Assembly (NCBI GenBank): GCA_039683515.1
Contig: JBDKRG010000011.1
Location: forward strand, 14,328 to 78,327
Origin: Candidatus Sumerlaeia bacterium
Lineage (GTDB): Bacteria; Sumerlaeota; Sumerlaeia; MVZB01
DNA length: 64,000 nt
Reading direction: 5' to 3'
The position numbers were made by a program, and so were the translations under genes. Shown piece after piece: positions 11,907-63,450 of this stretch; the stretch's first letter is position 1; each line of letters starts with the position of its first letter. The notes under the pieces were generated by a model. It had not been told where the DNA came from and ran no database searches. It saw only the letters and a list, made by a program, of their open reading frames with translations.

Positions 11907-11967
11907 TCGAATGGACGAAACGGGCCGAATGGACCGAATGGACCGAATGGACCGATTTGAACGGACC
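11907..11967. repeat. Tandem decamer (GAATGGACC(G/A)) x about 5 in the dppB 5' leader
   Basis: tcgaatggacgaaacgggccgaatggaccgaatggaccgaatggaccgatttgaacggacc. Confidence 0.8.
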
Positions 11968-12170
11968 TTCGGTTTTTACGCCAGTCAAATTTCGCTCATA
12001 AGTGAATCTTCATTCCGCAATTTGCAATCAACACGATCCGAAATTCCCAAAATGGTTGACGTTGATGGGGAAATCACCTATCACATTAATCAGGGTCCAA
12101 ACCCACCATGACACCAACGTGCGAGAAGTCATGAGGGGCAGCGGTCTGCTTGAGGGTTTGACAGGAGTTT

Positions 12171-12413
12171 TTGTTTGAAATGGGATACCGCGACTACGAA
12201 ATACCGATGGAGCTGTTCACCCGCCTTTCCGAAACCGTCCATCTGAATGACGATCAATTGCGCCGCCAGATTCAGAAGGGCGCCGGCGAGCCGATCTACC
12301 GCATCGATCAGCTCGAGCGCCTTTACGGTGACATGGCCTTGGAGCCGCTGATCAAACTGGAATTCGACCGGTTCGACATCCCGCGCCGCAACGGGAAGCG
12401 GAACCGGCGCTAA
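12171..12413 (+). CDS. Small hypothetical protein (80 aa)
   Basis: Clean GC3-rich codon usage and no overlap with a better gene: MGYRDYEIPMELFTRLSETVHLNDDQLRRQIQKGAGEPIYRIDQLERLYGDMALEPLIKLEFDRFDIPRRNGKRNRR. Confidence 0.4.
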   Translation: MFEMGYRDYEIPMELFTRLSETVHLNDDQLRRQIQKGAGEPIYRIDQLERLYGDMALEPLIKLEFDRFDIPRRNGKRNRR

Positions 12414-12438
12414 ACAGGTTTTCCTACCGGGGCAACGC

Positions 12439-13059
12439 ATGCGTTCCAAACTGATGCTGGCCGTCGTCGTCGCCGCGCTGGCGTGGGCCGCGGCCGCGTT
12501 GTATCAGCAATCGAACTGGAAAATCGTGAACAACCCGCCGCCGGCCGGGCCGATCGTCGCGCTCGGCGACAGCCTGACGTTCGGGTTCGGCGCCGACAAA
12601 GGCGGGTCCTACCCCGAACAGCTCGGCAAGCTGATCGGCCGCGCCGTCGTCAACCGGGGCGTCAACGGCGACAAGATCGCCGACGCCGCGGCTCGGCTCG
12701 ACAAGGACGTCCTCGCGCTCAAGCCGTCGATCGTCATTATCCTGCTGGGCGGCAACGACATCCTCACGCAGCAGCCGATGGACCAGAGCTTCAAGACGCT
12801 CGAGGGGATCGTGCGGCGCGTGCAGGGGCGCGGGGCGATGGTCGTTCTCGTCGGCCTGCGCGTCATCGCGCCGGTCGGCGGGGTCGGGGCGCGCTACCAC
12901 AAGCTCGCGCGCCAGACCGGCTGCTTGTTTGTCGACGACATCCTCGACGACATCTACGGCCAGCGCTCGCTCATGTCCGACCAGATCCACCCCAATACGA
13001 AGGGCTACAAGATCATGGCCGAGCGGGTCGCCGGCAAGCTGAAACCGTATATTAAATAA
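12439..13059 (+). CDS. SGNH/GDSL hydrolase (TesA/arylesterase-like), secreted
   Basis: A signal peptide is followed by the GDSLT block (ALGDSLTFG), GGNDIL and DQIHPNTKGY (DxxH). Confidence 0.85.
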   Translation: MRSKLMLAVVVAALAWAAAALYQQSNWKIVNNPPPAGPIVALGDSLTFGFGADKGGSYPEQLGKLIGRAVVNRGVNGDKIADAAARLDKDVLALKPSIVIILLGGNDILTQQPMDQSFKTLEGIVRRVQGRGAMVVLVGLRVIAPVGGVGARYHKLARQTGCLFVDDILDDIYGQRSLMSDQIHPNTKGYKIMAERVAGKLKPYIK

Positions 13060-13155
13060 GCATGATTGCGACCATGGGACCTATACGGTCGGGCCACGCT
13101 TGCAAGTCGACTCTGCGGATTTTATGGTATCTCATCTGGTTAAGGGGTAAGTGAC

Positions 13156-14082
13156 ATGAATTCCGTGCGCGTTGCCGTTGTGCAGGCCGGGGCCGTTCCG
13201 TTCAACACCGAAGCGTGCGTCGAGAAGGCCGTCGGGCTCATTCGCGAGGGGGCGGCCACGGGCGCCAAGGTCCTGGTATTCCCCGAGGCGTTCATCGTCG
13301 GCTACCCGAAAGGGCTCAACTACGGCCTGGCCGTCGGGACTCGCGACGACGCCGGGCGCGAGGAATTCCGGCTCTACCTCGACGCGGCGATCCAGGTGCC
13401 CGGCCCGCAAACGCGGCGCATCGGCGAGGCCGCGGCGGCGCACGGCGTTTACGTGGTGATCGGCGCGATCGAGCGCGAGGGGGGGACGTGCTACTGCACG
13501 GTCCTGTTCTTCGGCCCCGACGGCGCGCTGCTCGGCAAGCACCGCAAGCTCATGCCGACGGCGATGGAGCGCCAGATCTGGGGGTTCGGCGACGGCTCGA
13601 CGCTGACGGTCGTCGACAGCCCGTACGGCAGGATCGGCGCGGTCGTGTGCTGGGAGAACTACATGCCGATGCTGCGCATGGCGATGTATGCCAAGGGGGT
13701 CGCGCTCTACTGCGCGCCGACGGCCGACGACCGCGAGACGTGGCTCCCCACGATGCGCCACATCGCGCTCGAGGGCCGCTGCTTCGTTCTGGCCGCCAAC
13801 CAGTTCTTGCGCAAAAAGGATTTCCCCGACACCGTGCGCGTGACGATCGGCGAGACGCCGGACGCCGTCCTCATGAAGGGGGGCAGCATGATCGTCAACC
13901 CCCTGGGCAAGGTCCTGGCCGGCCCGGATTTCTCCGGCGAGACGATCCTCACCGCCGACCTCGACCTGGACGACATCGGCCGCGGCAAGTTCGACTTCGA
14001 CGTCGCCGGCCACTTCGCCCGGCCCGACGTGTTCCAACTGATCGTCAACGAAAAGCAGGCTCAGCCCGTCGTGACAAAGTAA
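13156..14082 (+). CDS. Nitrilase/cyanide-hydratase family carbon-nitrogen hydrolase
   Basis: The catalytic triad is present: E in FPEAF, K in HRKLMPT, and C in VCWENYMP. 308 aa. Confidence 0.9.
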   Translation: MNSVRVAVVQAGAVPFNTEACVEKAVGLIREGAATGAKVLVFPEAFIVGYPKGLNYGLAVGTRDDAGREEFRLYLDAAIQVPGPQTRRIGEAAAAHGVYVVIGAIEREGGTCYCTVLFFGPDGALLGKHRKLMPTAMERQIWGFGDGSTLTVVDSPYGRIGAVVCWENYMPMLRMAMYAKGVALYCAPTADDRETWLPTMRHIALEGRCFVLAANQFLRKKDFPDTVRVTIGETPDAVLMKGGSMIVNPLGKVLAGPDFSGETILTADLDLDDIGRGKFDFDVAGHFARPDVFQLIVNEKQAQPVVTK

Positions 14083-14089
14083 CGAACCA

Positions 14090-15667
14090 TCATCGGTATA
14101 AAAACCACTCGCGAGCGGCAGTTTGATTGATCGTGAGGCATAGGCTCCACAAGTCGCTGTTGTACTCGTTGTCTGCGGGATTGAGCGTGGCGGGAAAATC
14201 CCCATATGGTTGCGCCACGGTGAATCCGGCGTTCCATTCGCTTCCCTCGGCATAACTCGCCACGTCGGATGTCGAGTCGGTCTGCCATGCGAGCCAGTAT
14301 GTGCCCGGGCTGAGCTTGGCCAGCATATTATTGTGCTTCGGCGGCGTGACAACCCACGTGTTCGAGGTCTCGACGTCGCTCGGAATCGATTGCCAGAGAA
14401 GCTGCCGCGGCGAACTGTCGTCGTAGATGGCCAGACGCACATGGCCTCCGCCGGCATGCGCATAAAACCTCATGTCCTTGACGGTTGCCGGTTGAGTCAG
14501 GGTGACTTTGCTGGCGTGGAGCGTGTTTTTGTGAGTGTAGGCGACCTTTGCCAATGTTTGAGTCGTGAATGTGTTAAAATTGCCCATAATCCCATACATA
14601 TAGCCGTTTTCACGGTCGAGCCAGGACGGGTACAGCGTCCGGTTATCGTCAGGCGAGACGAACTTGCCGGCGATCGTAAAGTCCGCCAGGCGCACCCTGA
14701 TGACGTATCCCTGATAAGTGCTTCGTGTCGCAAAATAACCATAGCCATTCGACGGATCGATCAATGCAGCGATGAAATGGTATCCATAATAAACTTGTAT
14801 AAATCCGGCATACGAAAAATCGGACAATCGAACCCTCGCAATGAGCGCGCTCCCCATGATGGTGTCCATGGCGAAATATGCATAGCCGCCGGCCGGGTCG
14901 ATCGCGGCGCATTCAAACCTGCTTGTGTTGTGCGGCAACGTCAGCGTTCCCACGCGCGTGAAGTCCGAGAGCCGGATCTTGACGACCTTTCCTGGAAAAG
15001 CGCCCACGCCAAAATACGCAAAACCGGCTGATTCATCGAGAACGGCACAAAGTGGGCTTTCGCCCGCCTCAAGCGGCATCGTCTGCACGCGCGTAAAATC
15101 GGAGCTTCGAATTTTAACGATTTTTCCGCTGGTCGAGCCGAGTCCGAAATAAATATGCCTGTCGGATGGGTCGAAAAGGGAACAAGAAATATTTTTTTCA
15201 CCGCTAAGCGTCATGGATGAGAGCCGGGTCAGATCGGCAAGCCGCACGCGAACGATGATGGCCGGATCGGTATAGGCTGCAAGATAAAGGGTCCCCGAGG
15301 TCGGGTCGATAACGCCGCTGGGGAACCTGGTTTCGCCCGGATTCAGCATGAGCTCCTTTTCAATCGCCATGTCGGCAAACCTGATCTTTTTTACGATTCC
15401 GGGCGAACCGCCGGTGAGGTAATACACGTATCCATCCAACGGGCCAAACAAATGGGTTCCGCTGGTTGATCGAAGATCCGACTCGCGAACGAGCTGCATG
15501 CCGGCGTTGGGGTATGCGGTTGTTCCGGGGGTTGTGCTGCCAGCCGTCGCGGCGCCAAACGACTGGATCTGGAGAAGGATATACAACACCAGGAAAATGA
15601 TATGTCTGGCATTCAACGTCAGAGGCTCCGTCTTTAGGCTCGTCCCACCGAACAGTTTATATATCAA
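14090..15667 (-). CDS. Secreted YVTN-type beta-propeller repeat protein with a C-terminal extra domain
   Basis: Signal peptide. About 6-7 repeats of approximately 45 aa (G.VVKIRLSDFTRV.TLTL...IDP..GYAYF). GC content is noticeably lower than the surrounding DNA. The true start may be an internal TTG (NARHIIFLVLYILLQ...). Confidence 0.6.
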   Translation of the reverse strand: MIYKLFGGTSLKTEPLTLNARHIIFLVLYILLQIQSFGAATAGSTTPGTTAYPNAGMQLVRESDLRSTSGTHLFGPLDGYVYYLTGGSPGIVKKIRFADMAIEKELMLNPGETRFPSGVIDPTSGTLYLAAYTDPAIIVRVRLADLTRLSSMTLSGEKNISCSLFDPSDRHIYFGLGSTSGKIVKIRSSDFTRVQTMPLEAGESPLCAVLDESAGFAYFGVGAFPGKVVKIRLSDFTRVGTLTLPHNTSRFECAAIDPAGGYAYFAMDTIMGSALIARVRLSDFSYAGFIQVYYGYHFIAALIDPSNGYGYFATRSTYQGYVIRVRLADFTIAGKFVSPDDNRTLYPSWLDRENGYMYGIMGNFNTFTTQTLAKVAYTHKNTLHASKVTLTQPATVKDMRFYAHAGGGHVRLAIYDDSSPRQLLWQSIPSDVETSNTWVVTPPKHNNMLAKLSPGTYWLAWQTDSTSDVASYAEGSEWNAGFTVAQPYGDFPATLNPADNEYNSDLWSLCLTINQTAAREWFLYR

Positions 15668-15806
15668 CCCATGTCGGTTGACAATCGCTAACCGGCGAGG
15701 ATTCTGGTTGCATGAGTGCCGGGTGGCGTTGTGAGGTGAATGGGTGTAACCTGAATGTGTAAGCGCTTTGCGACGGCGATAATGGATTTAAGGAAGGGCC
15801 CTGGAA

Positions 15807-17090
15807 TTGGAAGAGATCAAGGCAAATGCGGAGCGGCGGCAGCGGGCGTTGCTGATCGGGATCCACGCCGAGGGGACCTCGCGCGAGGAGGCCGAGGACC
15901 ACGTCGAGGAGCTGGCGAGCCTGACCGACACGATGGGGGCCGAGGTCGCCGGCATGGAAATCGTGCGGATGGGGCGGCCGACGCCGCATTTCTACCTGGG
16001 CAGCGGCAAGGCCGAGGAGATCAAGGCGATCGCCGAGGCCGAGGAGGCCGACGTGCTGATCTTCGACTTCGACCTGAGCCCGAGCCAGCAGCGCAACTGG
16101 GAAAAATTCACCGAGCGCGCCGTGATCGACCGGCAGGAGGTCATCCTCGACATCTTCGCGAGCCGCGCCCAGACGCGCGAGGCGCGGCTGCAGGTCGGCC
16201 TCGCGCGCATGGAATACAGCCTGCCCCGGCTGCGGCGCGCGTGGACGCACCTGGAGCGCCAGCGCGGCGGCGCGGGCCTGCGCGGCGGCCCCGGCGAACT
16301 CCAACTCGAAGTCGACCGCCGCGCCGCGATGGAGCGCATCGCGCGGTTCAAGCGCGAGCTCAAGCAGGTCCGCATGCAGCGCCAGGTGCAGCGCAAGAGC
16401 CGCTCGACGCGGCCGATCCCGTCGGCGGCGATCGTCGGCTACACCAACGCCGGCAAAAGCTCGCTGCTGCGGGCACTGACCGGCGCCGACGTGTTCATCG
16501 AGGACAAGCTGTTCGCGACGCTCGACCCGACGACGCGCCGCATTGAACTTTCCAACCGCCAGCCGCTGCTGCTGACCGACACCGTGGGGTTCATCCGCAA
16601 GCTGCCGCACGACCTCGTCGAGGCGTTCAAGGCGACGCTGGAAGAGGCCGCCATCGCCGACTTCATCGTCCACGTGCTCGACGTGAGCCACCCCAAGATC
16701 GAGGAGCATTACGCCGTCACGAACGAGGTCCTGAAAGATCTGCACGCCGTGCACAAGAAGACGATCCTCGTCCTGAACAAGGCCGACGTCGACCACGACC
16801 CGCTCATCCACGCGCGGATGGCCCGGCACAACCCGCTGTGCTACGAGGTCTCGACGCACACGGGCCAGGGTCTCGAGGTGCTGCGCGAGGCGATGGCGTC
16901 ACACTTCGTGCTGCCGATGGAACGGTTCAGGCTGCACATCCCGCATGGCCGGTTCGACGTGGTCGACCTCGTCCACCGCGAGGGCGAAGTCCTGACCCAG
17001 AAGCACGACGAAACCGGCGTGTGGCTCGAGGCGGACCTGCCGGTGAGGTTCAAGGCGCAGTTCGAGGAATTTATAAAAGAAAAATCCTAA
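15807..17090 (+). CDS. hflX: GTPase HflX
   Basis: An HflX N-domain is followed by a G-domain (GYTNAGKSSLL, DTVGF, NKAD). TTG start in the track. Confidence 0.9.
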   Translation: MEEIKANAERRQRALLIGIHAEGTSREEAEDHVEELASLTDTMGAEVAGMEIVRMGRPTPHFYLGSGKAEEIKAIAEAEEADVLIFDFDLSPSQQRNWEKFTERAVIDRQEVILDIFASRAQTREARLQVGLARMEYSLPRLRRAWTHLERQRGGAGLRGGPGELQLEVDRRAAMERIARFKRELKQVRMQRQVQRKSRSTRPIPSAAIVGYTNAGKSSLLRALTGADVFIEDKLFATLDPTTRRIELSNRQPLLLTDTVGFIRKLPHDLVEAFKATLEEAAIADFIVHVLDVSHPKIEEHYAVTNEVLKDLHAVHKKTILVLNKADVDHDPLIHARMARHNPLCYEVSTHTGQGLEVLREAMASHFVLPMERFRLHIPHGRFDVVDLVHREGEVLTQKHDETGVWLEADLPVRFKAQFEEFIKEKS

Positions 17091-17160
17091 ATTCGAATAT
17101 CGAAATCCGAATATCGAAATCCTAAACAAATCCGAATCTAGAAATTCAAATAATATTCTC
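17091..17160 (+). repeat. Copy B of the AT-rich intergenic element, directly after the hflX stop
   Basis: attcgaatatcgaaatccgaatatcgaaatcctaaacaaatccgaatctagaaattcaaataatattctc. Confidence 0.6.
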
Positions 17161-17455
17161 GTCGCAGAGGGGCAGAGATTGGCAGAGAGCGCGGAGAAGA
17201 ACATATTTTTCTTCTCTGCAAAACTCTGCGTTCTCTGCGACAAAATCTTGCTTTGAATATATTCCTGTCGCGGAGTGGCAGAGAGCGCAGAGAAAAACAT
17301 TTTTTCTTCTCTGCAAAACTCTGCGTTCTCTGCGACAAAATCTTGTTTTGAATATATTCCTGTCGCGAAGGGGCAGAGAGCGCGGAGAAAAAACATATTT
17401 TTCTTCTCCGCATCTCGGCAAAACTTCGCGTTCTCTGCGACAAAAGTTTTATTCA
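17159..17455. repeat. Tandem array of 3 units of approximately 95-107 bp, each an internal hairpin (GTCGCAGAG...CTCTGCGAC family)
   Basis: The units begin at about 17159, 17267 and 17360. The shared core is gcagagagcgc(g/a)gagaa(a/g)aacat(a)tttttcttctctgcaaaactctgcgttctctgcgacaaaatcttg(c/t)tttgaatatattcc. It lies between the convergent hflX and MFS genes. Confidence 0.85.
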
Positions 17456-18726: not shown

Positions 18727-18862
18727 GGATCACACCTGCAAAAAAACCTGAACAGAAAGAAGAGATGAGACATGAAAGATGAGAGATGAGATCGAAATCC
18801 CATCCCCCACACCTCAACCCCAACATAGTAGCATCGCGCGCGCGGAGGTTCGATGAATTTGA

Positions 18863-19411
18863 TCAGGCGCGGTTCTTGACGTAAATGACGGCGTCCTCGC
18901 GCGTGCCGTCGGGGCGGGGCTCGCCGCAAGGGATGACAAGCTCGCGGGTAAAACCGAGCCGCTCGGGAATTTTCCAGCTTTTCGTGTTCGATAGCGCGGC
19001 CCGAATGCGAATCTCTCCGGCGCCGAGTTGGTTGATCGCGTATTCGGCGACCGCCCCGACCGCTTCGGTCATGAAGCCGCTGCCGGATTTGCGTGTGTCC
19101 ATCCAGTAGCCGATCTCAAAGCTCGGGATCGCGAGGTCCTTGGGACGGATGCCGATGAAGCCGACAAAATCGCCTGTTCGATTTTCCCGGATGGTAAAAC
19201 GGAATTCGCGCATCGGGTCGTCGGACTCGAGCAGGCGCGCAATATTTTTTCGCGTGTCCTCGCCTGTCGGCACAGGGTTGACCCACGGCATATAGCGGCT
19301 CAGCGCGGGAAGGCTGGCGAGGATCGCCGCGTGGGCCGCCTCGGCATCGGCGGGCTCGGCCCGGCAAAGCGTCAGGCGCGGAGTACGGAGTACGGGGGAC
19401 GAGTCATGCAT
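18863..19411 (-). CDS. GNAT family N-acetyltransferase (RimJ/RimL-like)
   Basis: 182 aa with the RimJ/L-type LTLCRAEPADAE...FEIGYW acetyltransferase fold motifs. Confidence 0.8.
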   Translation of the reverse strand: MHDSSPVLRTPRLTLCRAEPADAEAAHAAILASLPALSRYMPWVNPVPTGEDTRKNIARLLESDDPMREFRFTIRENRTGDFVGFIGIRPKDLAIPSFEIGYWMDTRKSGSGFMTEAVGAVAEYAINQLGAGEIRIRAALSNTKSWKIPERLGFTRELVIPCGEPRPDGTREDAVIYVKNRA

Positions 19412-20066: not shown

Positions 20067-20070
20067 GTGG

Positions 20071-20150
20071 ATTCCTTAAGCCCGAAATTCGAATATCGAA
20101 ACCCGAAACAAATTCTAATTTAGAAAATTCGAAATTCAAAAAAACTTTTA
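20071..20150 (+). repeat. Copy C of the AT-rich intergenic element, abutting the mgtC start codon (opposite orientation to the transcript)
   Basis: attccttaagcccgaaattcgaatatcgaaacccgaaacaaattctaatttagaaaattcgaaattcaaaaaaac. Confidence 0.6.
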
Positions 20151-22243: not shown

Positions 22244-23898
22244 TTCTTCTGATCCAGCTGCTTTTGCAACCGTTCCAATTTTTGAAGGCGCTGCCGGGAC
22301 TCGACGTCGGGGGTCGGCTGGGGCGGCGGCGCGAGTTCCACCTTGCCGCCGGCGACGGGCGCGCCCTCGACCTGCAGGACCACGGTCTCGAAATTCTGCG
22401 GCTGGTAACGGAAATTCATCGCCATCGGGTTCTGGTTGAGCCGGGGGACAAGATCGGGGAAGAGCGGCAGCGCGCTGGAGTGGAAATCGCCGACCAGGCG
22501 CAGCGGCATGGCCTGCATCTGCGCGTTGATGAAGTCGTGGAATTGCGCGAGCGGCAGCTGCGCGTACCAATTCGAGAAAATCACGACGTCGCCGGGCTGG
22601 AGGGTCGACCAGATGCTCTGCGGCAGGTACTTGACCGCGCGGCCCGACCAGAAGATCGCCTTGGGGGGGCCGACTTCCGCGTCCACCTTCTCGTTGTAGG
22701 ACTCGTTCGTGAAGACGCGGCCGATCGAGGCGGCGGGCATTTCGGCGACGCGCTCGGCGGCGAGCTTGAAATCCTCGAACGGCTGGGTCTGGCTCCACGC
22801 GACGACGCCGGCAAAGACCAGGGCGTAGGCGATCGCCGGCCCGGCAACCGCGGCGAAGCGCAGCCGATTGGACTCGCAACGGCGCTGCCACGTCGCGAAA
22901 CCGTGGCCGGCGAAGACGCAAACGAGCGGAACCAGCGGGAACAGGTAACGCTCCTGGTACGACATGAACGCCGACTGGAGGGCGAGGATCGCCAGCATCA
23001 GCGCGAGGCCGATCCAGCCCGCCCAGCGCAGCCGCCACGTCGACCAGTTGACGCGAAACAGGCCGTACAGGAAAAAGCCAAACAGCCCCCACGTCACGAA
23101 ATACGGCCCGCGCATGACGAATTCCTCGACCATCATCCAGTAGTCGATCGGCCGCGTCGCGCGATCCTCGATCTGGCGGAAATGCGTCAGGAGCGGCGTG
23201 ATCCCCTCGCGCGCGAGCCACAGCGGCACGGCAAGCCACGGGAGGATGGAGAGGCAGTCCTGAGTTCTGAGTCCTGAGTCCTGAGTCTTTTTCGCAAACA
23301 TGCGCCACGCCATCACGGCGGCGATCGGGATCAGGAGGAAAATGCCCTGGTAGCGGGTCAGCGTCGCCAGCGTGCCGAGGAGCGAGGCGATCAGCAGCCA
23401 GCGCGAGCCGGCCTTCGGGTCGGGCGCGATCGGCCGGCCCTCGCTGTGGATGAACTGGTCGGGGCGCCACGCCGCGACGGCGAGCGCCACCGAAGCCAGC
23501 GAGCCGCTCCACAGGGCGACCATCAGCGCGTCGGTCATCGGCTGAAGGCTCCAGCGCATCGGCATCGGGCTGACGATCCAGGCCACGGCGGCCCACCGCG
23601 CGGCGCGCCGGCCGAAGAGCGTTTTCGTCAGCGCCATGATCGGGATCACGGCCAGCGCGCCGGCAAGGAACGAAACCAGCCGGCCGGCGTTTTCGAGCCC
23701 GACGCCCGGGATCCACGCAAACAGCCGGGCGACGATGGCGTAAAACGGGGGCCAGTAACTCAGGCCGAAACGGAAGGTGTCGAGCGCGAGGACGCCGTCG
23801 GTGTAGGCGCCGTTGGCAAGCGGCAGGAAAAACCCGCGCCAGGCGAGCGCCGCTGCGACTGCGATCAAATCGTCACGGAGTTTGACGGGACGTGCCAT
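22240..23898 (-). CDS. Glycosyltransferase family 39 (PMT/ArnT-like polytopic membrane glycosyltransferase)
   Basis: 552 aa with about 12 transmembrane segments and a PMT_2-type N-terminus (LIAVAAALAWRGFFLP...YWPPFYAIVARLF). It contains the internal heptamer repeat GAGTCCT x4 (23256-23283), which encodes TQDSGLRTQD. Confidence 0.8.
   Translation of the reverse strand: MARPVKLRDDLIAVAAALAWRGFFLPLANGAYTDGVLALDTFRFGLSYWPPFYAIVARLFAWIPGVGLENAGRLVSFLAGALAVIPIMALTKTLFGRRAARWAAVAWIVSPMPMRWSLQPMTDALMVALWSGSLASVALAVAAWRPDQFIHSEGRPIAPDPKAGSRWLLIASLLGTLATLTRYQGIFLLIPIAAVMAWRMFAKKTQDSGLRTQDCLSILPWLAVPLWLAREGITPLLTHFRQIEDRATRPIDYWMMVEEFVMRGPYFVTWGLFGFFLYGLFRVNWSTWRLRWAGWIGLALMLAILALQSAFMSYQERYLFPLVPLVCVFAGHGFATWQRRCESNRLRFAAVAGPAIAYALVFAGVVAWSQTQPFEDFKLAAERVAEMPAASIGRVFTNESYNEKVDAEVGPPKAIFWSGRAVKYLPQSIWSTLQPGDVVIFSNWYAQLPLAQFHDFINAQMQAMPLRLVGDFHSSALPLFPDLVPRLNQNPMAMNFRYQPQNFETVVLQVEGAPVAGGKVELAPPPQPTPDVESRQRLQKLERLQKQLDQKK
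23256..23283. repeat. Heptanucleotide tandem repeat (A)GTCCTG x4 (one unit AGTTCTG) inside the GT39 coding sequence
   Basis: cagtcctgagttctgagtcctgagtcctgagtc. The same heptamer recurs at 48112-48153 and 48292-48308. Confidence 0.85.
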
Positions 23899-25038: not shown

Positions 25039-25040
25039 GA

Positions 25041-25130
25041 GGGAAATCAGTCAGAATCAGAAAGAATCGGAGAGAAATTCGAAACAAATCCGAGGAAATA
25101 TTAATAAAAATCATTCAATGAATTAAATGG
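25041..25130 (+). repeat. Copy D of the AT-rich intergenic element, directly after the AKR stop
   Basis: gggaaatcagtcagaatcagaaagaatcggagagaaattcgaaacaaatccgaggaaatattaataaaaatcattcaatgaattaaatgg. Confidence 0.7.
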
Positions 25131-25335
25131 AACGCGGATGACGCGGATCGGGCGGATGTGCACGGATCATTTTTGAACCGCCAAGACGCCCAGATCACCA
25201 GGACCCGAAATCTTTCATTCTATTGTTCTTTGCGCCCTTGGCGTCTTGACGGTTCGATTGCGCCCTTCAAACAAACATGTTTTTTGCGCTTTTTGCACTT
25301 TTGCGATTTCGCGTGATCAATCTGGATTGGCTGTT

Positions 25336-26421: not shown

Positions 26422-29400
26422 GGTGCAGCCCGTGGCCGGGCTTGTTGGCATAAACCAGGTAATACACGACCGGGATGACGCCGAGCGTGAAGACCGTCGA
26501 GGCCGCCACGCCGAAGATCACCGACCAGGCAAGGCCCGAGAAGATCGGGTCGAGCGTGATGACGATGTTGCCGAGCAGCGCCGTGCCGGCCGTTAGAATA
26601 ATCGGCCGCGTGCGGATCGCGCCGGACTGGATGAGCGACTCCTCGAGCGTCAATCCGCGCCTTAATCCGCGGTGAATGAAATCGACGAGGATCACCGAGT
26701 TGCGCACGACGATCCCGGCCAGCGCGATCATCCCGATCATCGCCGTGGCCGTGAAGAAGATCGGATTGGGCAGGCCGGCCACCACGCGCTCGCCGAACAA
26801 TCCAAGGCACCAGAAGCCCGGCATGATACCGATCATGGTGAGCGGGATCGCGAGGATCATGATCGCGGCGATGAGCGCCGAGCCGGTCTGAAGCCAAAGA
26901 ATCAGGTAAATGCCGATGCACGCCGCGCCGAACGCGAGGCCCAGGTCGCGGAATGCGTCGACGGTGATCTTCCACTCCCCTTCCCCGAGCCAGTTGATCG
27001 ACGTGCCGGCGGGAAGGGTCCATGGGATCCCGCCGCCGGGGCGGATGTAGTTGCGGTCGTTGAGAGGTTTGGGGTCAGCCGTCCCTCCGGGACTTTGTTG
27101 CTGGCGTTGATCTTGACCCGCCACTGACGTGGCGGGCTGAAGGCGATCGTCCCTCCGGGACTCGGTTTTCAGCCGGTCGGCGCCGACGTCGAGGACCACG
27201 TCGGCTGGGGCGCGGCCGGCGGTTTCAGCGAAGACGTAGGCGACGCGGCGCAGGTTCTTGTGATAGATCGTCTGGTCGACTTTTGTGTTGCGGATGCGGC
27301 CGACTTCGCCGAGCGGGACCATCGGTTGCGGGGCGTCCTCGAGCTGCGTGCCGACGCGCCGCTTCGTGATCCCGGCGCGGCCCTTGATGTAAAGCGACGA
27401 GAGCGAGTCGGGGTCCGAGCGCATCGGCCGCGACAGGCGCAGGACGATCGGGAGCGGCTGGGCCTCGGTCGGGATGTTCAGATCAGTCGCGGTCTGGCCG
27501 TCGATCGCGAGCGCGAGGGTCTGCGCGACGTCCTCGGTGCCGACGCCCGAAAGCGCGGCCTTTTCCTTGTCGGTGTCGAACACGAGCTTGGTTTGATCGG
27601 CCTCGACCGAGCTGTCGACGTCGACGACGAGCGGCTCTTTCTTCAGGCGCTCCGCGGTGACCAACGCCGCCTTTTGCAATGTTTGATAAGGCGTCTGCGG
27701 GTCGCCGTAGATTTCGGCCGTGACGGTCGAGATCACCGGCGGGCCGGGCGGCACTTCGACGATCTTGATGTTCGCGCCGAACGGCCGCGCGATTTTCTCG
27801 AGGTCGCGGCGGATGCGCAGGATGAGCGCGTGCGACTGCTGCGCGCGCGTTTTTTTGCCGATGAGGCTCACGCGCAGGTCGGCGACGTTCCCGCCCTGGC
27901 GCATGTAGTAGTGGCGCACCATGCCGTTGAAATCCATCGGCGAGGACAAGCCGACGAAACCGGTAAAATTCACGACCTCGGGGACGGTGCGCAGATACTG
28001 GGCGAGCGCGCGCGTGGCGGCCTCGGTGCGCTCCAGCGTGGTGCCCTCGTCCATGTCGACGACGACCTGGAACTCGTTCTTGTTGTCGAACGGGAGCATC
28101 TTGAGCGGCACGAGCCGGAACGCGGGCAGCGCGATGGCCGCGACAAAAAGCAGTCCGATCGCGCCCAGGAACAGCCACGCCAGCGCGCGGCTGCGCAGCA
28201 TCGGGCCCAGCAGCGCGTTGTAGATCTTGTAGAGCGGCGTGCGCTTGACGTCATAGTCCTCGCGGCCGCCGTGGCCGTCGCGCTTGAGGATCACGCGCGC
28301 CAGGAACGGCGTCACGCAGAACGCGACGATGAGGCTCATGCCGATCGTGATCGGGACGTTGAGCGCCATCGGCCGCATGTAGGGGCCCATCATCCCGGTG
28401 ATGAAAAACATCGGGATGAACGAGATGATCACGGCGATGGTGGCGAGGATCAGGGCGGGGCGGATCTCCTGGACGGCCAGCAGGATCGCGCGGCGCGGCG
28501 ACCATTTGCGCATCCGGTAGAAACGCTCGATATTTTCGACGTCGGTGATCGGGTCGTCGACGAGCAATCCCAGGGCGAGAATGAGCGCGAAGAGCGTCAC
28601 GCGGTTGATCGTGTAGCCGGCGACGTAATTGATGAGCAGCGTCGCGCCGTAGCAGACCGGCACGGCGAGCGCGATCACCAGCGCCGCGCGCCAGCCCAGG
28701 ACGAGCCCGACGAAGATCACGACCGTCAGCACGGCGACGGCGAGCGCCTCGACGAGGTCGTTCACCTTTTCGTTGGCCGTCTCGCCGTAGTTGCGCGTGA
28801 TCGTGCAGTGGATGTCGGGCGGCAGGAGGCGCTGCGCGGCGAGCTCGAGGCGCCGCTCGGCGTCGCGGGCGACCCAGACGGCGTTCGTGCCGCGCTGCTT
28901 GGCGACGGCGATCGAGACCGCCGGGTAAAGCCGCGGTTCCTTGTCGGCGCCGGCCGGCCCGAACCCGACCCACGTATAGGTCGTGGCCTCGTCCGGGCCG
29001 TCGATGACGCGCGCGACGTCCTTCAGGTAGACCGGGATGCCGTCGACGACGTTGACGACGAGATTTTCGAGGTCGCGCACGCCGGCGATGAACGAGCCGG
29101 CCTCGATCTTGATGGAGGCGTCGGCCTTGTCGATCGACCCGGCCGGGAGCTGGACGTTGTGCACGCCGAGCGCCCACGCGACCTCGAGCGGGGTCGTGCG
29201 GCGGGCGGCGAGGGCGTCGGGCATGAGCTCGACGCGAACGGCGCGCGGCCGGCCGCCGACCACCGTCACGCGGTTGGTGTTCGGCACGCCCTGGAGCTCG
29301 ATGACGAGTTCCTCGGCGAGGCGGCGCAGCTCGTAGTCGTCGGAGCGCGTGGGGTTGTCGCTCCACAGCGTGGCGATCACGATCGGGACGTCGTCGATCT

Positions 29401-31170: not shown

Positions 31171-31282
31171 GATCGATTCCTTTTCTCAAGTAGTTCGGAA
31201 ACAACTCCATACATACGCCAAGACGCCAAGAACGCCAAGTCGAATCCTGGCGTTCTTGGCGTCTTGGCGTAAAAAAAGGCTC

Positions 31283-34532: not shown

Positions 34533-34540
34533 AAGAATGA

Positions 34541-34625: not shown

Positions 34626-34628
34626 TGA

Positions 34629-45755: not shown

Positions 45756-45837
45756 CGGAATGATTATTTCTTTCTCGGTAATCTTTTTTTCGATTTTTGT
45801 TTCGGATTTGTGAATGATTCCGCCTGATTCTGGATGA
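45756..45837 (-). repeat. Copy F of the AT-rich element, inverted relative to E and starting at the yicC stop codon
   Basis: The reverse complement reads ...ggaatcattcacaaatccgaaacaaaaatcgaaaaaaagattaccgagaaagaaataatcattcc. E and F are arranged tail-to-tail around about 40 bp. Confidence 0.6.
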
Positions 45838-46743: not shown

Positions 46744-46766
46744 GATCTATCGCTCCCCGCCTGTTC

Positions 46767-46945
46767 GTGCGTCGTGCGTCGTAATCGTAATCGAGATTCG
46801 ATCACCCGTCACCGACTGTAATGCAACTCACTCGTTGGCCGAAAGTGTTTTGTCGAAGAATGGGTCCTATGGGACCGATGGGACCGATGGGACCTATGGG
46901 TTCATAGGATTCGATCAATTCGATTACGATTACGACGCACGACGC
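46767..46945. repeat. Long inverted repeat (arms about 29 bp, CGTGCGTCGTGCGTCGTAATCGTAATCGA) enclosing a loop that contains the 9-mer tandem ATGGGACCG x4
   Basis: The left arm is at 46767-46795 and the right arm at 46917-46945. The loop includes gggtcctatgggaccgatgggaccgatgggacctatggg. Confidence 0.8.
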
Positions 46946-46966
46946 ACGAGCACGAGCACGAATGCG

Positions 46967-48111: not shown

Positions 48112-48153
48112 GAGTCCTGAGTCCTGGGTCCTGGGTCCTGGGTCCTGGGTCCT
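48112..48153. repeat. Heptamer array GAGTCCT x2 + GGGTCCT x4 immediately upstream (6-48 nt) of the AI-2E transporter start
   Basis: gagtcctgagtcctgggtcctgggtcctgggtcctgggtcct. On the coding strand this is AGGACYC x6, each unit containing the SD-like core AGGA. Confidence 0.9.
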
Positions 48154-48240
48154 GAGGACGAAGTTTGTTGGCTCGGGCGGAATTAGTCAAGTCCCTGCTT
48201 AGCGGTGCGTGTCCGTGCCCCGTCCGTGTTTGTCCGTGTA

Positions 48241-48270
48241 CAACAAAAATCCCAGGGCGTTGACCCTGGG
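48241..48270 (-). terminator. Rho-independent terminator of the IclR regulator gene
   Basis: Minus strand: CCCAGGG-tcaacg-CCCTGGG followed by ATTTTTGTTG. Confidence 0.7.
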
Positions 48271-48314
48271 ATTGAATTGTTTCCCTCAGCACTCAGGACT
48301 CAGGACGATTCTTC

Positions 48315-51440: not shown

Positions 51441-51621
51441 TTCGCAGTCCCGCCTTCGGGCGGAATCTGAACATGAAATCAGGCCCGAACGGCCCCCGGG
51501 TCGTCCGGGCCTGATTCGTTCAGACCATTTTCAAAGTGGATGATGCGTTCGATTACGATTACGATTACGAGCACGAGCACGAGCACGACGCTCTACATAC
51601 ATACAGGAGATATCCCTCACC

Positions 51622-52863
51622 ATGACTGTCGACCGCGCGTTGATTCACAAGATCGCCGCCGAAGAGCTTGAGGCCGGCGCCAAATTCCTGATGGACATGA
51701 TCCGCTACCCGTCGACCCCGGGCCAGGAAAACGAGCTGATGCACTTCATCGAGAAGGAAATCAAGCCGCTGGCCGACAAGGTCGAACGCGTCGGGTTCCC
51801 GGCCGATTTCCGCAACGACCCCGAATACTCGTTCCCGATCGAGGGGATCGACTACGAGGGGCGCTTCAACCTGCGCGTGGTCATCGGCGACGACAGCGTC
51901 AAGTCCCCCTCGCTCATCTTCAACGCGCACACCGACGTCGTCCCGGCGTCCGAAAACCAGCCGCGGGCGTTCGACCCCGAGCGCAAGGACGGCGTCATTT
52001 ACGGCCGCGGCGCGTGCGACGACAAAGGGAGCGTGGCCACGCTCTACATGCTGGCGCGCATCCTCAAGCGCCTGCCGGCCAAGCCCAAGGCCAAGATCGT
52101 CCTGCACCTGGTCAACGAGGAGGAAAACGGCGGCAACGGCACGCTCAACATGATCCGCACGGGCGAGAAGGCCGACGCATTCGTCGTCATGGAGCCCACG
52201 CGCGGCCGCCTGATGCCGTCGGTGCGCGGGGCGGTCTGGTTCCGCGTGAAATTCCGCGGCCTCGCCGGCCACGTCGGCAGCGCCGGCAAGACCGTCAGCG
52301 CGCTCAAGCTCGCCGTGGAGGCGATCGAGCTGCTCGAGCAGTTCCACGCCGAGACGCTCGCCGCCAGCCGCGGCATCCAGTTCTTCGACGACTACCCCAA
52401 CCCGATGCCGATCAACTTCGGCCGCCTCAACGCGGGCGTGTGGCCGGCCTCGGCCCCCAACGCGGCCGTCCTCGAGGGCGTCATGGGCCTGCTGCCCAAC
52501 CTCACGCGCGAGCAGATCATGGAGGGCATGGAGCGCACGCTGCGCGAGCGCGGCTCGGAAAAGCTGCGCGACAACTTCAGCTTCGAGTTCATGTACCGCC
52601 ACGACTCGCACGTGACCGACCCGGGCCACAAGGTCGTCAAGACCCTCCAGAAGGCCGTCCAGAACGCCGGCATGTCGGGCGAGCTGACCGGCATGGTCGC
52701 CTCGTGCGACTCCAACTACTACTCGAACTTCCTCAAGATGCCGGGCGTGGTCTTCGGCCCCGGCGACCTGATCGTGGCCCACGGCGCCGACGAGCAGATC
52801 GAAGTCGCCCAGCTGGCGCAGGCCGCCTCGGCCATGGCGCAGCTCGCCTGCGAATGGGAATGA
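51622..52863 (+). CDS. M20 family metallopeptidase/deacylase (ArgE/DapE-like)
   Basis: HTDVV, GACDDKG and NEEENGG metal-binding motifs. Confidence 0.85.
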   Translation: MTVDRALIHKIAAEELEAGAKFLMDMIRYPSTPGQENELMHFIEKEIKPLADKVERVGFPADFRNDPEYSFPIEGIDYEGRFNLRVVIGDDSVKSPSLIFNAHTDVVPASENQPRAFDPERKDGVIYGRGACDDKGSVATLYMLARILKRLPAKPKAKIVLHLVNEEENGGNGTLNMIRTGEKADAFVVMEPTRGRLMPSVRGAVWFRVKFRGLAGHVGSAGKTVSALKLAVEAIELLEQFHAETLAASRGIQFFDDYPNPMPINFGRLNAGVWPASAPNAAVLEGVMGLLPNLTREQIMEGMERTLRERGSEKLRDNFSFEFMYRHDSHVTDPGHKVVKTLQKAVQNAGMSGELTGMVASCDSNYYSNFLKMPGVVFGPGDLIVAHGADEQIEVAQLAQAASAMAQLACEWE

Positions 52864-52898
52864 TGAAAGATGAATGATGAATGATGAATGATGAAAAC

Positions 52899-52925
52899 GG
52901 CCGGGGAAGACCTCCCCGGCTTTTT
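52899..52925 (+). terminator. Rho-independent terminator after the M20 gene
   Basis: GGCCGGGGAagacCTCCCCGGC followed by TTTTT. It is embedded in a GAATGATGA-family repeat. Confidence 0.85.
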
Positions 52926-53001
52926 AAATTTCCTCATTCACCCTTGATTGATCCCCCCGCATCCGATTTAATCGTCCCTAACATGCTAGGGATGGCTGTA
53001 A

Positions 53002-55718: not shown

Positions 55719-55847
55719 ATGCAGTAGCCCGAGCGTCAGCGAGGGACTCGGCCGATACGCAATCAGAACCGCAAGTTGAAATTCGAAATCTGAACGAATT
55801 GAATTCCACTAAGGCGAAGTCCCTCGCTGACGCTCGGGCTACTGCAT
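55719..55847. mobile_element. MITE-like palindromic element: perfect 30-bp terminal inverted repeats flanking a 69-nt AT-richer loop
   Basis: The left arm is ATGCAGTAGCCCGAGCGTCAGCGAGGGACT (55719-55748). The right arm is its exact reverse complement (55818-55847). The loop contains gaaattcgaaatctgaacgaattgaattcc, related to the AT-rich element family. Confidence 0.7.
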
Positions 55848-57179: not shown

Positions 57180-57295
57180 TCGCGCAGCGATCGCAGAGAA
57201 ACAGAGACCATCGAATTTTGCTATCTGTTTATTCCTGTCTTCAAAAATTCCTCAGCATCTCTGCCTAACTCTGCTCCTCTGCGGCAAGAATCAGT
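57180..57295. repeat. Solo copy of the GCAGAG...CTCTGC hairpin family, directly after the radical SAM gene
   Basis: gcgatcgcagagaaacagagaccatcgaattttgctatctgtttattcctgtcttcaaaaattcctcagcatctctgcctaactctgctcctctgcggc. Compare the units at 17159-17455. Confidence 0.6.
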
Positions 57296-58245: not shown

Positions 58246-59460
58246 ATGATGGCTGCCTGGACGCGAACCCGACCGAATCCGGAACCGAGGAAATTCATGC
58301 GCGGACCGAATCACGAGAGTTTTCCGCGAACGCGGGCGCAACTCGAAGAGATCGAGGATTTCACCCTTGCCCCGTACGCGATCCGCGCCGGCCGCAGCCA
58401 CGGCCGCGACGTCGAGGAGCAGCCGGCCGCCATGCGCACCGAATTCCAGCGCGACCGCGACCGCATCCTGCACTGCGCCGCGTTCCGCCGGCTCGAATAC
58501 AAGACCCAGGTCTTCGTCACGCACGAGGGGGACTACTTCCGCACGCGCCTGACCCACACGCTCGAAGTGGCGCAGATCGCCCGCAGCATCGCGCGCACCC
58601 TCGGGCTGAATTCGGATCTGATCGAGGCCATTTCGCTTGCCCACGACCTCGGACACACGCCGTTCGGCCACACCGGCGAGTCGGTCCTGAACGAGCTTCT
58701 CGCCGGCGAAGGGGGCTTCGAGCACAACGCCCAGAGCCTGCGCGTCGTCGAGGTCCTCGAGGAGCGATTCTGCGACAGGCCCGGCCTCAACCTGACGTGG
58801 GAAGTGCGCGAGGGGATCGCCCGCCACTCCAAATCCAACACGCCGGCCGTCACGCGATACGTCAACGGCAACCAGCCCTCGCTCGAGGCGCAGGTCGCCG
58901 ACCTCGCCGACGAGATCGCCTACAACCACCACGACCTCGACGACGCGCTCGGGATGGGGCTCCTCCCCGTCGATGCGCTGCGCGACGTCGGCTGGCTGTG
59001 GGAGATCTGGCGGACCGAGGCCGAGCGCTTCCCGGATTCCAGCCCGCGCCACCGCCAGAACCGGTTCCTCGGCGCGCTGATCGAAACCATGATCGACGAC
59101 ACGATCGAGGCGACCGCCGACGAGCTCAACCGAAACGGGATCGACTCGCCCGAGGCGGTGCTGGCGTTCCCCAGGCGGCTCGCGGTCTTCAGCCCGGCCG
59201 TGCGCGTTCATCAGGACGGCCTGCGCAAGTTCCTGCTCGAGCGCGTCTACCACCACCCCAGGACGCTCAAGATGCAGTACAAGGCGGCCGGGTTCTTCAA
59301 GAAGCTGTTCGAGCTCTACCGCGAGCAGCCCGACCTGCTCCCCGTCGAATGCCAGGCCATGATCGGGAAATGGGGGCTCATGCGCGTCCTGACCGATTAC
59401 CTCTCGGGGATGACCGACCGGATGTGCATGGAGCAGTATAAGGAACATTTTGAATCGTAA
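58246..59460 (+). CDS. dGTPase-family HD-domain phosphohydrolase
   Basis: RDRDRILHCAAFRRLEYKTQVF...THTLEVAQIARSIA...HDLGHTPFGH. The probable start is the internal MRGPNHESF. Confidence 0.9.
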   Translation: MMAAWTRTRPNPEPRKFMRGPNHESFPRTRAQLEEIEDFTLAPYAIRAGRSHGRDVEEQPAAMRTEFQRDRDRILHCAAFRRLEYKTQVFVTHEGDYFRTRLTHTLEVAQIARSIARTLGLNSDLIEAISLAHDLGHTPFGHTGESVLNELLAGEGGFEHNAQSLRVVEVLEERFCDRPGLNLTWEVREGIARHSKSNTPAVTRYVNGNQPSLEAQVADLADEIAYNHHDLDDALGMGLLPVDALRDVGWLWEIWRTEAERFPDSSPRHRQNRFLGALIETMIDDTIEATADELNRNGIDSPEAVLAFPRRLAVFSPAVRVHQDGLRKFLLERVYHHPRTLKMQYKAAGFFKKLFELYREQPDLLPVECQAMIGKWGLMRVLTDYLSGMTDRMCMEQYKEHFES

Positions 59461-59550
59461 TCGGTTAGAATCGGAAAGAATCGGCCGGAAATTCGAACCA
59501 AAAATTGAGGAAAAAGAAAAAACCAAATTAAGATAATGATTCAAAAGGAG
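59461..59550 (+). repeat. Copy G of the AT-rich intergenic element, spanning from the dGTPase stop to the SD of the CE7 esterase gene
   Basis: tcggttagaatcggaaagaatcggccggaaattcgaaccaaaaattgaggaaaaagaaaaaaccaaattaagataatgattcaaaaggag. Confidence 0.7.
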
Positions 59551-60869: not shown

Positions 60870-61006
60870 TAAACCAGTCGCAAAGACGCAAAGGCGCCAG
60901 AAACATCAAATTTTAATTCTGGATTCTTCTTTGCGGATTGGCGGCTTTGAGTGTGATCCGATTTGGAATCGATCTCTCTGCGGCCTCTGCGGTTCGATTC
61001 TCCGGA

Positions 61007-62821: not shown

Positions 62822-62830
62822 GAAACAACC

Positions 62831-63046
62831 TTAGAATAATGGATACAGAACCGCCATCAGCGACCCATATTGGACCATCAACACGGCCATGAGGCTCAGC
62901 ACGACGATCAGCACGATCATCGGGATGAGCCACCATTTCTTGTTTTCGCGCAGGAACCAGACGAATTCCACGGCGAGCGAAACATCCTCCGGATCGTCCG
63001 CCCCCTGCTCAACCGCGGCCGCGGATTGTTCCTGGCGCATGCTCAT
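62831..63046 (-). CDS. DUF5989/SxtK-like small membrane protein (71 aa), paralogue 1
   Basis: EFVWFLRENKKWWLIPMIVLIVVLSLMAVL...VLYPLF. Single transmembrane helix. Confidence 0.7.
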   Translation of the reverse strand: MSMRQEQSAAAVEQGADDPEDVSLAVEFVWFLRENKKWWLIPMIVLIVVLSLMAVLMVQYGSLMAVLYPLF

Positions 63047-63050
63047 CCTC

Positions 63051-63278
63051 CTACAGCACCGGGTAGATGAACGGCATCAGCGGGCCGAGGTGGATCGTGA
63101 GGAACGCAAGGAGGCCCAGGACGACGACCAGCACGATCAGCGGGATCAGCCACCACTTCTTGTTTTCCTTGAGGAACCAGACGAACTCGGTGACCAGAGA
63201 GGGGTTTTCGTTTTCATCCGGTTCGGTCGGATTGGTGGGATTCATGGTGGGTTGATCGGCCATGGTAACGCGCCTCAT
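63051..63278 (-). CDS. DUF5989/SxtK-like small membrane protein (75 aa), paralogue 2
   Basis: EFVWFLKENKKWWLIPLIVLVVVLGLLAFL...FIYPVL. Tandem paralogue of the preceding gene. Confidence 0.7.
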   Translation of the reverse strand: MRRVTMADQPTMNPTNPTEPDENENPSLVTEFVWFLKENKKWWLIPLIVLVVVLGLLAFLTIHLGPLMPFIYPVL

Positions 63279-63334
63279 CGGGTTTGGTGCCTCGCGCCGG
63301 AGGCTGGATTTACCATACAGGAGAATCGGGGATG

Positions 63335-63450
63335 ATGAAAGACGAATTGAATGATGAATGATGAGTGATGAGTGATGAAAGATGAAAGGAAAACCGAATC
63401 GGGCGGTTGGCGATCCGGGCCTTTTTCATCATTCATCACTCATCATTCAT
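63335..63450. repeat. GAATGATGA-family inverted repeat in the divergent intergenic region between the sxtK-like operon and the PP2C gene
   Basis: gatgaatgatgagtgatgagtgatgaaagatgaaagg ... cgggcggttggcgatccgggcctttt ... tcatcattcatcactcatcattcatcattcc. Confidence 0.6.

Follow-up and report, generated by a model that had tools for sequence, protein, structure and literature searches.

Tandem arrays in the intergenic DNA of a Sumerlaeia contig

The DNA analysed here is a stretch of 64,000 nucleotides (nt) from contig JBDKRG010000011.1 of a Candidatus Sumerlaeia bacterium (assembly GCA_039683515.1), which at its full length we call the window, and our subject is the series of short tandem arrays that punctuate its spacers. 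The window has a G+C content of 64%, and a gene map built from codon-usage log-odds, with Pfam-supported open reading frames (ORFs) as the training set, leaves 7.0 kb (11%) of it intergenic. The product of its HflX gene is 100% identical to a GTPase HflX annotated on a 158.7-kb contig of a Candidatus Sumerlaeia bacterium, whereas exact look-ups of three window proteins gave no match. Pfam names could be assigned to about 30 of its genes, all of ordinary chromosomal types, and no transposase, reverse transcriptase or RAYT (the transposase associated with repetitive extragenic palindromic, or REP, sequences) was found among these roughly 30 genes scanned. Since a heuristic gene caller erred on several window genes, the orientation counts across 37 loci given below are to be taken as rough.

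Arrays were located by combining Tandem Repeats Finder (TRF) with direct reading of the sequence. An original prediction for this DNA had described intergenic hairpins built from motifs of 7-10 nt, and all of the arrays that it listed were recovered where it had placed them. The units themselves needed partial revision: the supposed 9-mers GAATGATGA and GAGATGAGA are the heptamers GAATGAT and GAGATGA, and CGATTACGA and GCACGAG reduce to the 6-mers CGATTA and ACGAGC; CGAATGGAC is a 9-mer. TRF also revealed arrays outside that list: those at 23256-23287, 48114-48154 with 48285-48306, 33224-33253 and 36961-36985, the 14-mer at 17089-17145, and 10-mers of the AATCGGAAAG type.

Under a strict definition (at least three near-perfect copies, period 4-12), the intergenic 7.0 kb contains 14 arrays, as against 0.47 ± 0.67 (maximum 3) in the 200 dinucleotide-preserving shuffles that were used to set the chance level; for periods 6-9 the corresponding figures are 13 and approximately zero. 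Coding DNA contains 5 such arrays, with 4.8 expected. The arrays are thus strongly over-represented and nearly limited to non-coding DNA. These shuffles rule out chance or base composition as the source of the arrays. Period 7 makes up 14 of the 38 intergenic TRF rows versus 3 of the 52 coding rows, the latter having mainly periods of 6, 9 and 12, so that multiples of three prevail inside genes.

At least ten unrelated unit families are present within the 64 kb, several of them having a common GGAC/AGGA core, and the same families recur at separate loci. Thirteen independent period-7 loci divide into GAATGAT (three), GAGATGA (three), ACTCAGG (two), TCCGCAA (two) and three singletons, giving eight pairs of loci with an identical family where 0.07 would be expected; none of 20,000 simulations reached eight. 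In addition, the window and its nearest relative each contain two copies of a composite of the form (CGATTA)n(ACGAGC)n, at sites that are not orthologous. Within it, a run of 31 nt, (CGATTA)3-CGAGCACGA, is identical between non-orthologous sites of the window and the relative, and a third copy lies in L165 (sequences used for comparison are given as L numbers).

An assembly artefact could be ruled out, as the same arrays recur in Logan assemblies made independently for this genome and for a 97% identical strain. Two short-read contigs from run SRR15035646 match the window at 100% identity, and short-read contigs of the same genome terminate at 48118, 51575 and 33253, every one of these ends falling inside an array. 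Genome-dispersed repeats break assemblies in this way, which lends indirect support to the prediction that the habit is genome-wide.

Anchoring of arrays at stop codons, and their pairing into hairpins

The strongest regularity in the placement of the arrays is their anchoring at stop codons. Of the 28 intergenic arrays, 13 are separated from a stop codon by 10 nt or less, compared with 3.7 ± 1.7 under random placement in the same spacer (0 of 5000 trials reached 13), and a single one is as close as this to a start codon. Stop anchoring is also seen in units that are themselves free of stops, namely AATCGGAAAG, AAATCCGAATATCG, ACGACGC and CGCAAAGA.

Many arrays are single, and hairpins are only part of the picture. 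Many others are followed downstream by an inverted copy, with which the transcript can form a stem of 15-35 bp. Inverted partners are supported at 34535-34619, 63332-63469, 31214-31271, 29960-30095, 46762-46794/46920-46952, 48114-48154/48285-48306 and 25173-25256, the first five of which had been predicted to be inverted-repeat pairs. The three GAGATGA arrays and those at 51550-51588 and 52858-52895, for which the same had been claimed, are essentially single, their partners being weak, degenerate or absent. Two arrays had been read as single-orientation tandems in leaders. One of these, ATGGGACCG x4.6 (46860-46900), is part of the hairpin loop at 46762-46952 and not of a leader; the other, at 11908-11955, does adjoin a gene for a DppB/OppB-type permease but is antisense to it.

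Array regions were also folded as RNA and compared with 200 shuffles. Five tandem-array hairpins reach z-scores between -4.6 and -10.9, in each case better than all 200 shuffles (Table 1), and across co-directional spacers the sense RNA folds better than the antisense RNA in 16 of 23 (p = 0.025). At 18760-18826, the stem contains four G.U pairs and therefore pairs well only as minus-strand RNA; in the 97% strain, L162, this hairpin carries G<->A changes opposite U, with pairing preserved only in minus-strand RNA. Canonical GC-rich terminators, each with its T-run, are enclosed by two of the pairs (at 52899-52921 and 48273-48248), and these inner hairpins are the only ones to combine the GC-rich stem-loop with the U-tract of an intrinsic terminator. 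We infer that the array hairpins have a role at the level of RNA.

Next to the largest GAATGAT hairpin, a strong Shine-Dalgarno-like site (ACAGGAGAA) stands 7 nt upstream of the ATG of a 9-codon mini-ORF, MMKDELNDE* (63310-63361, plus strand), which terminates within the GAATGAT array upstream of a PP2C phosphatase gene. This mini-ORF could be a leader peptide in an attenuator-like arrangement.

Arm order of GAATGAT pairs in metagenomes

An exact scan for (GAATGAT)3 matched at least 120 metagenome contigs, which range in G+C from 32 to 69% and many of which hold further heptamer families alongside. Among the matches listed, to which the counts in this paragraph refer, it is the purine arm, in which every frame contains TGA, that leads in 37 of the 38 inverted GAATGAT pairs identified using TRF; a strict count gives 21 of 23. 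The loops of these pairs measure 10-144 nt and are unrelated between loci, the copy numbers of the two arms are often equal, and T-runs are mostly absent. Similarly, where a GAATGAT array lies within 15 nt of an upstream stop in a co-directional spacer, it has the sense, stop-containing orientation in 15 of 15 cases. This arm order is not needed for a hairpin alone, and some selection or directional mechanism therefore appears to be at work.

A general rule by which the stop-containing arm comes first in every family was considered and rejected, since it fails in 12 pairs from other families (two with this arm first, three with it second and seven uninformative). The at least 120 metagenome loci yielded one orthologous pair only. 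On some contigs from metagenomes or metagenome-assembled genomes (MAGs), concatenated arrays belonging to several heptamer families fill nearly the whole of a spacer: L097 holds 18 arrays in 3.2 kb (positions 1-3164), and L019, a Phycisphaeraceae locus (13086-16337), has 11 in 21 kb.

Rapid turnover between relatives

L001 and L165 (GCA_021372575.1; about 84% nucleotide identity, HflX 89%) have the same array habit as the window, and several of the same families. Seven orthologous spacers could be compared between the window and this relative. Two retain the family, with a changed copy number or a single arm; in one, the position directly after the stop codon of the HflX gene (15807-17090) is occupied in both, but by arrays of different families; and in four the array is present in the window only (5' of the M20 peptidase gene, after its stop codon, between the GNAT and MFS genes, and between the genes for a DUF4861 protein and yicC). 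The composite at 51550-51588 is among those missing from the orthologous site, and the 46762-46952 locus has in L001 a single arm and a 35-nt spacer. In Sumerlaeia with HflX identities of 85%, 80% and 73%, 0-1 arrays were found per 16-21 kb.

Outside this group, arrays were present in 7 of 15 Planctomycetota-labelled loci fetched by way of the M20 peptidase, where they include inverted pairs, versus 1 of 17 loci from Lentisphaerae, Verrucomicrobia and Victivallaceae of similar G+C (p = 0.013).

These comparisons divide the earlier proposal of a lineage-specific process that generates or spreads the arrays. Spreading is borne out by the recurrence of families, the 31-nt composite and the arrays inside ORFs (below). 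As for lineage specificity, the habit is strong in the window genome and its nearest relative and weak in other Sumerlaeia, but it is also found at Planctomycetota loci and on at least 120 metagenome contigs, and the class has been published.

Arrays inside genes and other features of the window

The coordinates and surroundings of the arrays are collected in Table 1. Two heptamer arrays lie within intact glycosyltransferase ORFs. The loop encoded by the one in the PMT_2/GT39 gene is variable among homologues, and a homologue at 64-66% identity has SGLRTQDS there, a translation of the same array. The occurrence of heptamer arrays inside intact ORFs implies that arrays can be generated in DNA of any kind and that selection decides where they survive.

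Table 1. Tandem arrays and array hairpins of the window, with the genes beside them and the predicted RNA folds (free energies in kcal/mol; z-scores relative to 200 shuffles).
Position	Strand	Array or hairpin	Gene context	RNA fold
7886-7977	-	AT-rich element of about 60-90 nt on the 10-mer AATCGGAAAG, sense	3 nt past stop codon	
11908-11955	+	CGAATGGAC x5.3 (9-mer)	divergent spacer, 21 nt from start of DppB/OppB-like permease gene	
17089-17145	+	AAATCCGAATATCG x4.3 (14-mer, 7-nt sub-period)	begins at HflX stop codon	
18760-18826	-	GAGATGA array (18761-18791); minus strand reads G-rich purine arm, UUCG loop, (TCTCATC)n		z -2.6
20083-20141	+	degenerate CGAAATT-type array x8.7		
23256-23287	-	ACTCAGG x4.6 (TRF unit AGTCCTG)	within intact PMT_2/GT39 glycosyltransferase ORF, encoding loop TQDSGLRTQD	
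25173-25256		second inverted pair with ACGCCAAG motif: CCGCCAAGACGCC ... GGCGTCTTGACGG		z -2.9
29960-30095	-	inverted CACGAAA/TTTCGTG clusters, long imperfect hairpin		z -5.1
31214-31271		ACGCCAAG(A) x3 and perfect inverted copy; arms 31214-31237/31248-31271 (24 nt, 100% complementary), 24-26-bp stem, 10-nt loop		31205-31285: ΔG -53.5, z -10.9
32118-32169	-	GAGATGA x4.4 (32139-32169), sense; one-unit inverted partner	begins at methyltransferase stop codon	z -2.3
33224-33253	+	TCCGCAA x4.3 (30 nt)	N-terminal tail of GT4 glycosyltransferase ORF	
34535-34619		GAATGAT x4.4 (34535-34565), 21-nt A-rich spacer, ATCATTC x4.7 (34587-34619); hairpin	between GT4 glycosyltransferase gene (end at 34532) and convergent minus-strand gene (end at 34629)	34530-34640: ΔG -39.5, z -6.3
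36961-36985	+	ATTGCGG x3.6 (TCCGCAA family on opposite strand)	6 nt past tRNA-Leu	
37047-37105	-	GAGATGA x4.9 (37072-37105), sense; short partner	6 nt past stop of DNA polymerase III delta'-like gene	z -1.3, not significant
46762-46961		composite arms (TCGTGCG)2(TCGTAA)2 and (CGATTA)2(CGACGCA)2(CGAGCA)2; 46762-46794/46920-46952 (33 nt, 97% complementary), separation 125 nt	right arm stops 5 nt from AI-2E transporter gene stop	
48112-48306	-	GTCCTGR x5.9 (48114-48154; TRF unit GTCCTGG) and CTCAGGA x3.1 (48285-48306), inverted pair around minus-strand terminator	48114-48154: 7 nt from AI-2E gene start; 48285-48306: 8 nt past IclR stop	
51550-51588	+	single composite (CGATTA)3.5(ACGAGC)3.7	33 nt 5' of M20 peptidase ATG	
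52858-52940	+	GAATGAT x5.4 (52858-52895); downstream, terminator hairpin, then degenerate inverted unit CCTCATTCACCC	overlaps TGA stop of M20 peptidase	52855-52945: z -4.6
60879-60935	+	CGCAAAGA x2.4; inverted partner TCTTTGCGG	9 nt past stop codon	
63332-63469		GAATGAT-family x8 (63332-63386), 36-44-nt GC-rich spacer, inverted array (63425-63455); stem of about 35 bp	divergent spacer	63330-63475: ΔG -67.8, z -8.2

The AT-rich element on AATCGGAAAG has further copies at 25039-25110 and 59459-59540 (plus strand) and 45770-45839 (minus strand), together with an inverted partner at 45642-45691 (plus strand), and is found in relatives at 17091-17170 and 20067-20150. Its layout is one of (A)GAATCGGAAA repeats followed by GAAATTCGAAACAAA..GAGGAAAAA, free of stops and with no strong fold, and four of its copies start directly at a stop codon in the sense orientation. 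tRNA-Leu(TAA) and the array past it (36870-36985) lie within the longest spacer of the window, of 743 nt.

Several features of the window are of other kinds. Between the convergent HflX and MFS genes lies a 95-nt unit repeated 2.4 times (17180-17412; 92% match) that contains internal palindromes and is one unit shorter in L162; its CTCTGCG motif is also clustered at about 57250-57290 and 60970-61000. The strongest predicted hairpin of the window (ΔG -81 kcal/mol, z -11.5) is a non-tandem inverted repeat not made of short repeats, located at 55719-55847 downstream of a DUF2851 gene, with 35-nt arms that are 94% complementary and a 59-nt loop. The window, L165 and L166 all carry a GNAT acetyltransferase gene (18863-19411, minus strand) that L162 lacks, the indel measuring about 400 nt; in the window, the heptamer repeat CGGAGTA x2.4 lies at the 5' end of this gene (19379-19395). 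Adjoining a carbamoyltransferase gene is a tandem pair of paralogues (62831-63278, minus strand) that encode small membrane proteins of 71 and 75 amino acids (aa) sharing the motif EFVWFL(R/K)ENKKWWLIP. A very AT-rich spacer at 9300-9600 (31-38% G+C), adjoining an ORF of 180 aa with no Pfam match, and a 525-aa ORF at 14090-15667 (about 55% G+C, likewise with no Pfam match) may represent foreign DNA.

At the gathering score, no array matched any family in Rfam 15, the only window matches being tRNA-Leu and the Acido-Lenti-1 RNA. The latter is a full-length match (27117-27162, plus strand; 48 bits, gathering score 37) within an AcrB-family transporter gene, on the opposite strand. A tRNA-Thr called by ARAGORN within the RecJ coding sequence (1838-1928, minus strand) was unconfirmed by Rfam and is probably a false positive.

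Relation to known repeats

The class of repeat to which the window arrays belong is already known, and Sumerlaeia is a further case of it, enriched in the lineage and not unique. Mrazek's survey of 2007 reportedly found long simple-sequence repeats with units of 5-11 nt (LSSR5-11) in non-pathogens and in opportunists with large genomes, and Mazel et al. are said to have named the Calothrix repeats STRR in 1990, with CCCCAGT, TTGGTCA and CAACAGT as their units. No tandem copies of these three heptamers, or of GGGGATT or GGGAATC, occur in the window.

The repeat class and the idea of slippage are described in PMC4060949, PMC4679880 and PMC4692102; the survey, as the latter two relay it, names heptanucleotides as the unit most often found among the long simple-sequence repeats (SSRs) of many bacteria and proposes slippage as their cause (Mrazek 2007, via PMC4679880, PMC4692102). 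The window arrays have the features of LSSR5-11: head-to-tail units of 5-11 nt extending beyond chance length, with 6-10-nt units and heptamers predominant, over-represented in the intergenic DNA of a GC-rich environmental MAG, and with units that are not multiples of three kept out of coding DNA, apart from the two heptamer arrays inside ORFs. Unlike the described cases, which do not include Sumerlaeota or Planctomycetota, the window arrays are often inverted pairs, are anchored at stops and belong to recurring families. Our reading of the literature found no report of such repeats for either of these two phyla.

In having a few heptamer families, in tandem at many intergenic loci of one genome and on either strand, the window also resembles the STRR of Calothrix and Nostoc (the Calothrix tandem heptanucleotide repeats as cited in PMC4692102) and the Nostoc GGGGA(T/C)T repeats (PMC4692102), from which it differs in its units, in their not being prone to form G-quadruplexes, and in phylum. 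Arrays in Xanthomonas and Nostoc vary between close species and are at times found in inverted pairs (PMC4692102); GGGAATC arrays of Xanthomonas share with ours the intergenic heptamers, the variation in length and sequence between close species and some inverted pairs between convergent genes (PMC4692102), but they constitute one G-rich family, whereas the window has its ten or more, mostly A/T- and purine-rich. TAACTGA arrays of Beggiatoaceae are alike in being heptamers with stops in three frames one way, in overlapping upstream stop codons and in being few within ORFs (PMC4679880). These, however, face mainly start codons and are inverted in 1 of 170 sets (PMC4679880), whereas those of the window gather at stops and are frequently paired into hairpins.

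Enterobacterial REPs and bacterial interspersed mosaic elements (BIMEs), including REPs tagged with GTAG/CGTC, are similarly dispersed extragenic hairpins, found both at the 3' ends of genes and in co-directional spacers (PMC3733652), and the window arrays may act as REPs and BIMEs do on mRNA 3' ends. A REP, however, is a single palindrome of 20-40 nt that follows a conserved consensus and has its cognate RAYT (PMC3733652). The arms found here are instead tandem arrays of variable copy number that lack the GTAG/CGTC tag and do not follow the REP consensus, with no RAYT among the genes scanned.

Interpretation

Taken together, the evidence leans towards the window arrays being LSSR5-11, mostly heptanucleotides, that were born by slippage, copied and kept at gene 3' ends. 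Replication slippage would create and resize the units, and recombination or template switching would copy arrays to other sites, also in inverted orientation. Arrays would then pile up just after stop codons because this is the least constrained intergenic DNA, where an RNA hairpin at the gene 3' end might be useful, or at least harmless, whether it terminates transcription, is a site of RNase III-type processing or shields the RNA from exonucleases; ribosomes in any frame could be halted by the purine arm ahead of the stem.

Several observations weigh against this reading. Plain slippage leaves unexplained why the same unit families and composites are found at unrelated loci, and copy number is unchanged between the 97% identical strains (the window and L162), in the only two arrays compared. 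Stop anchoring is in part automatic for units that have stops in all frames; convergent or gene-3'-end spacers are not significantly enriched (37 loci, p = 0.24); and the largest GAATGAT hairpin, at 63332-63469, sits between divergently transcribed genes. In three of the spacers that carry arrays, it is the antisense RNA that folds better. Finally, most array hairpins have A/U-rich stems and lack a T-run, and they are therefore not canonical intrinsic terminators.

We think it rather unlikely that the arrays are small non-autonomous mobile elements, similar to REPs and BIMEs or to miniature inverted-repeat transposable elements (MITEs), moved by a transposase encoded elsewhere. Mobility would account for the same families and composites at unrelated loci and for the placement at gene 3' ends, and is consistent with the three copies of the 31-nt composite, two of them at non-orthologous sites in two genomes, and with the short-read contig breaks inside arrays. 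It is also consistent with contig L107, where two GAATGNT/ATCATTC hairpins have a common flank and loop, and with the 10-nt direct repeat GATTCGATCA (46794-46803 and 46908-46917), which flanks an insert of about 105 nt in the 46762-46952 hairpin, between its two arms, and looks like a target-site duplication from an insertion into the loop. However, this is the sole repeat of that type and lies within one hairpin loop, the 125-nt core has no second copy among the fetched sequences, and the arrays have neither conserved termini nor target duplications at their borders. The GAATGAT hairpins differ between loci in loops and flanks, and copies are unequal in copy number. The terminal inverted repeats, conserved core and target-site duplications that mark a MITE are thus not seen together, the cores being different, and the genes scanned in the window include no transposase, RAYT or reverse transcriptase.

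It is likewise doubtful that slippage and template switching left the arrays as purely neutral by-products without any function, found near stops only because the DNA there is free to vary. The fast turnover between relatives, the tolerance of arrays in ORF loops, the lack of a significant spacer-type bias across loci and a mixed strand asymmetry would all agree with neutrality. Yet the 37:1 arm order, among the matches listed, and the matching arm lengths are hard to obtain without selection or a directional mechanism; pairing at 18760-18826 is confined by its G.U pairs to the transcribed strand; and the HflX 3' end retains an array despite the change of family.

A reading that goes further, and to which we give little weight, takes the stop-anchored hairpins as a distinct module widespread in uncultured bacteria, its 5' arm a purine-rich heptamer array with TGA in every frame and its 3' arm the complement, with an arm order that is selected or set by directional copying; it would serve as a translation-insulated signal for RNA processing or termination and so be more than a passive SSR.

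Still less probable is a post-transcriptional regulatory network in which proteins that recognise specific RNA or DNA sequences would occupy the arrays as multivalent sites, one protein per 7-nt unit. Cold-shock-domain proteins are able to bind with one protein per 7-nt unit, and the defined unit families, the GGAC/AGGA core common to several units and the strict orientation of GAATGAT relative to transcription would suit such binding, which has been suggested earlier for TAACTGA repeats (PMC4679880). Against it, ten or more unrelated families in 64 kb would require many binders, orthologous spacers have already swapped families or lost their array at a nucleotide divergence of about 16%, and the neighbouring genes have no common function. 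Phase-variable contingency loci, in which 7-nt steps would retune the spacing of a promoter or ribosome-binding site, are very improbable: arrays do lie upstream of starts at 48114-48154 (7 nt), 51550-51588 (33 nt) and 11908-11955 (a divergent promoter region), but the 28 arrays favour stops over starts by 13 to 1, two arrays have no indel between 97% identical strains, and a free-living, GC-rich environmental MAG fits the LSSR5-11 pattern over that of pathogen contingency loci.

At a practical level, the arrays break short-read assemblies and may mislead the calling of starts and stops in GC-rich MAGs. As to their biology, the reason why heptanucleotide repeats are abundant in some bacteria has been little studied since the Calothrix repeats and the SSR survey of 2007. 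The window and the metagenome loci add three testable regularities, in anchoring at stop codons, recurrence of families at unrelated loci and a near-fixed arm order of inverted pairs, and, together with a compact set of loci, these direct the search for function to gene 3' ends and RNA hairpins.

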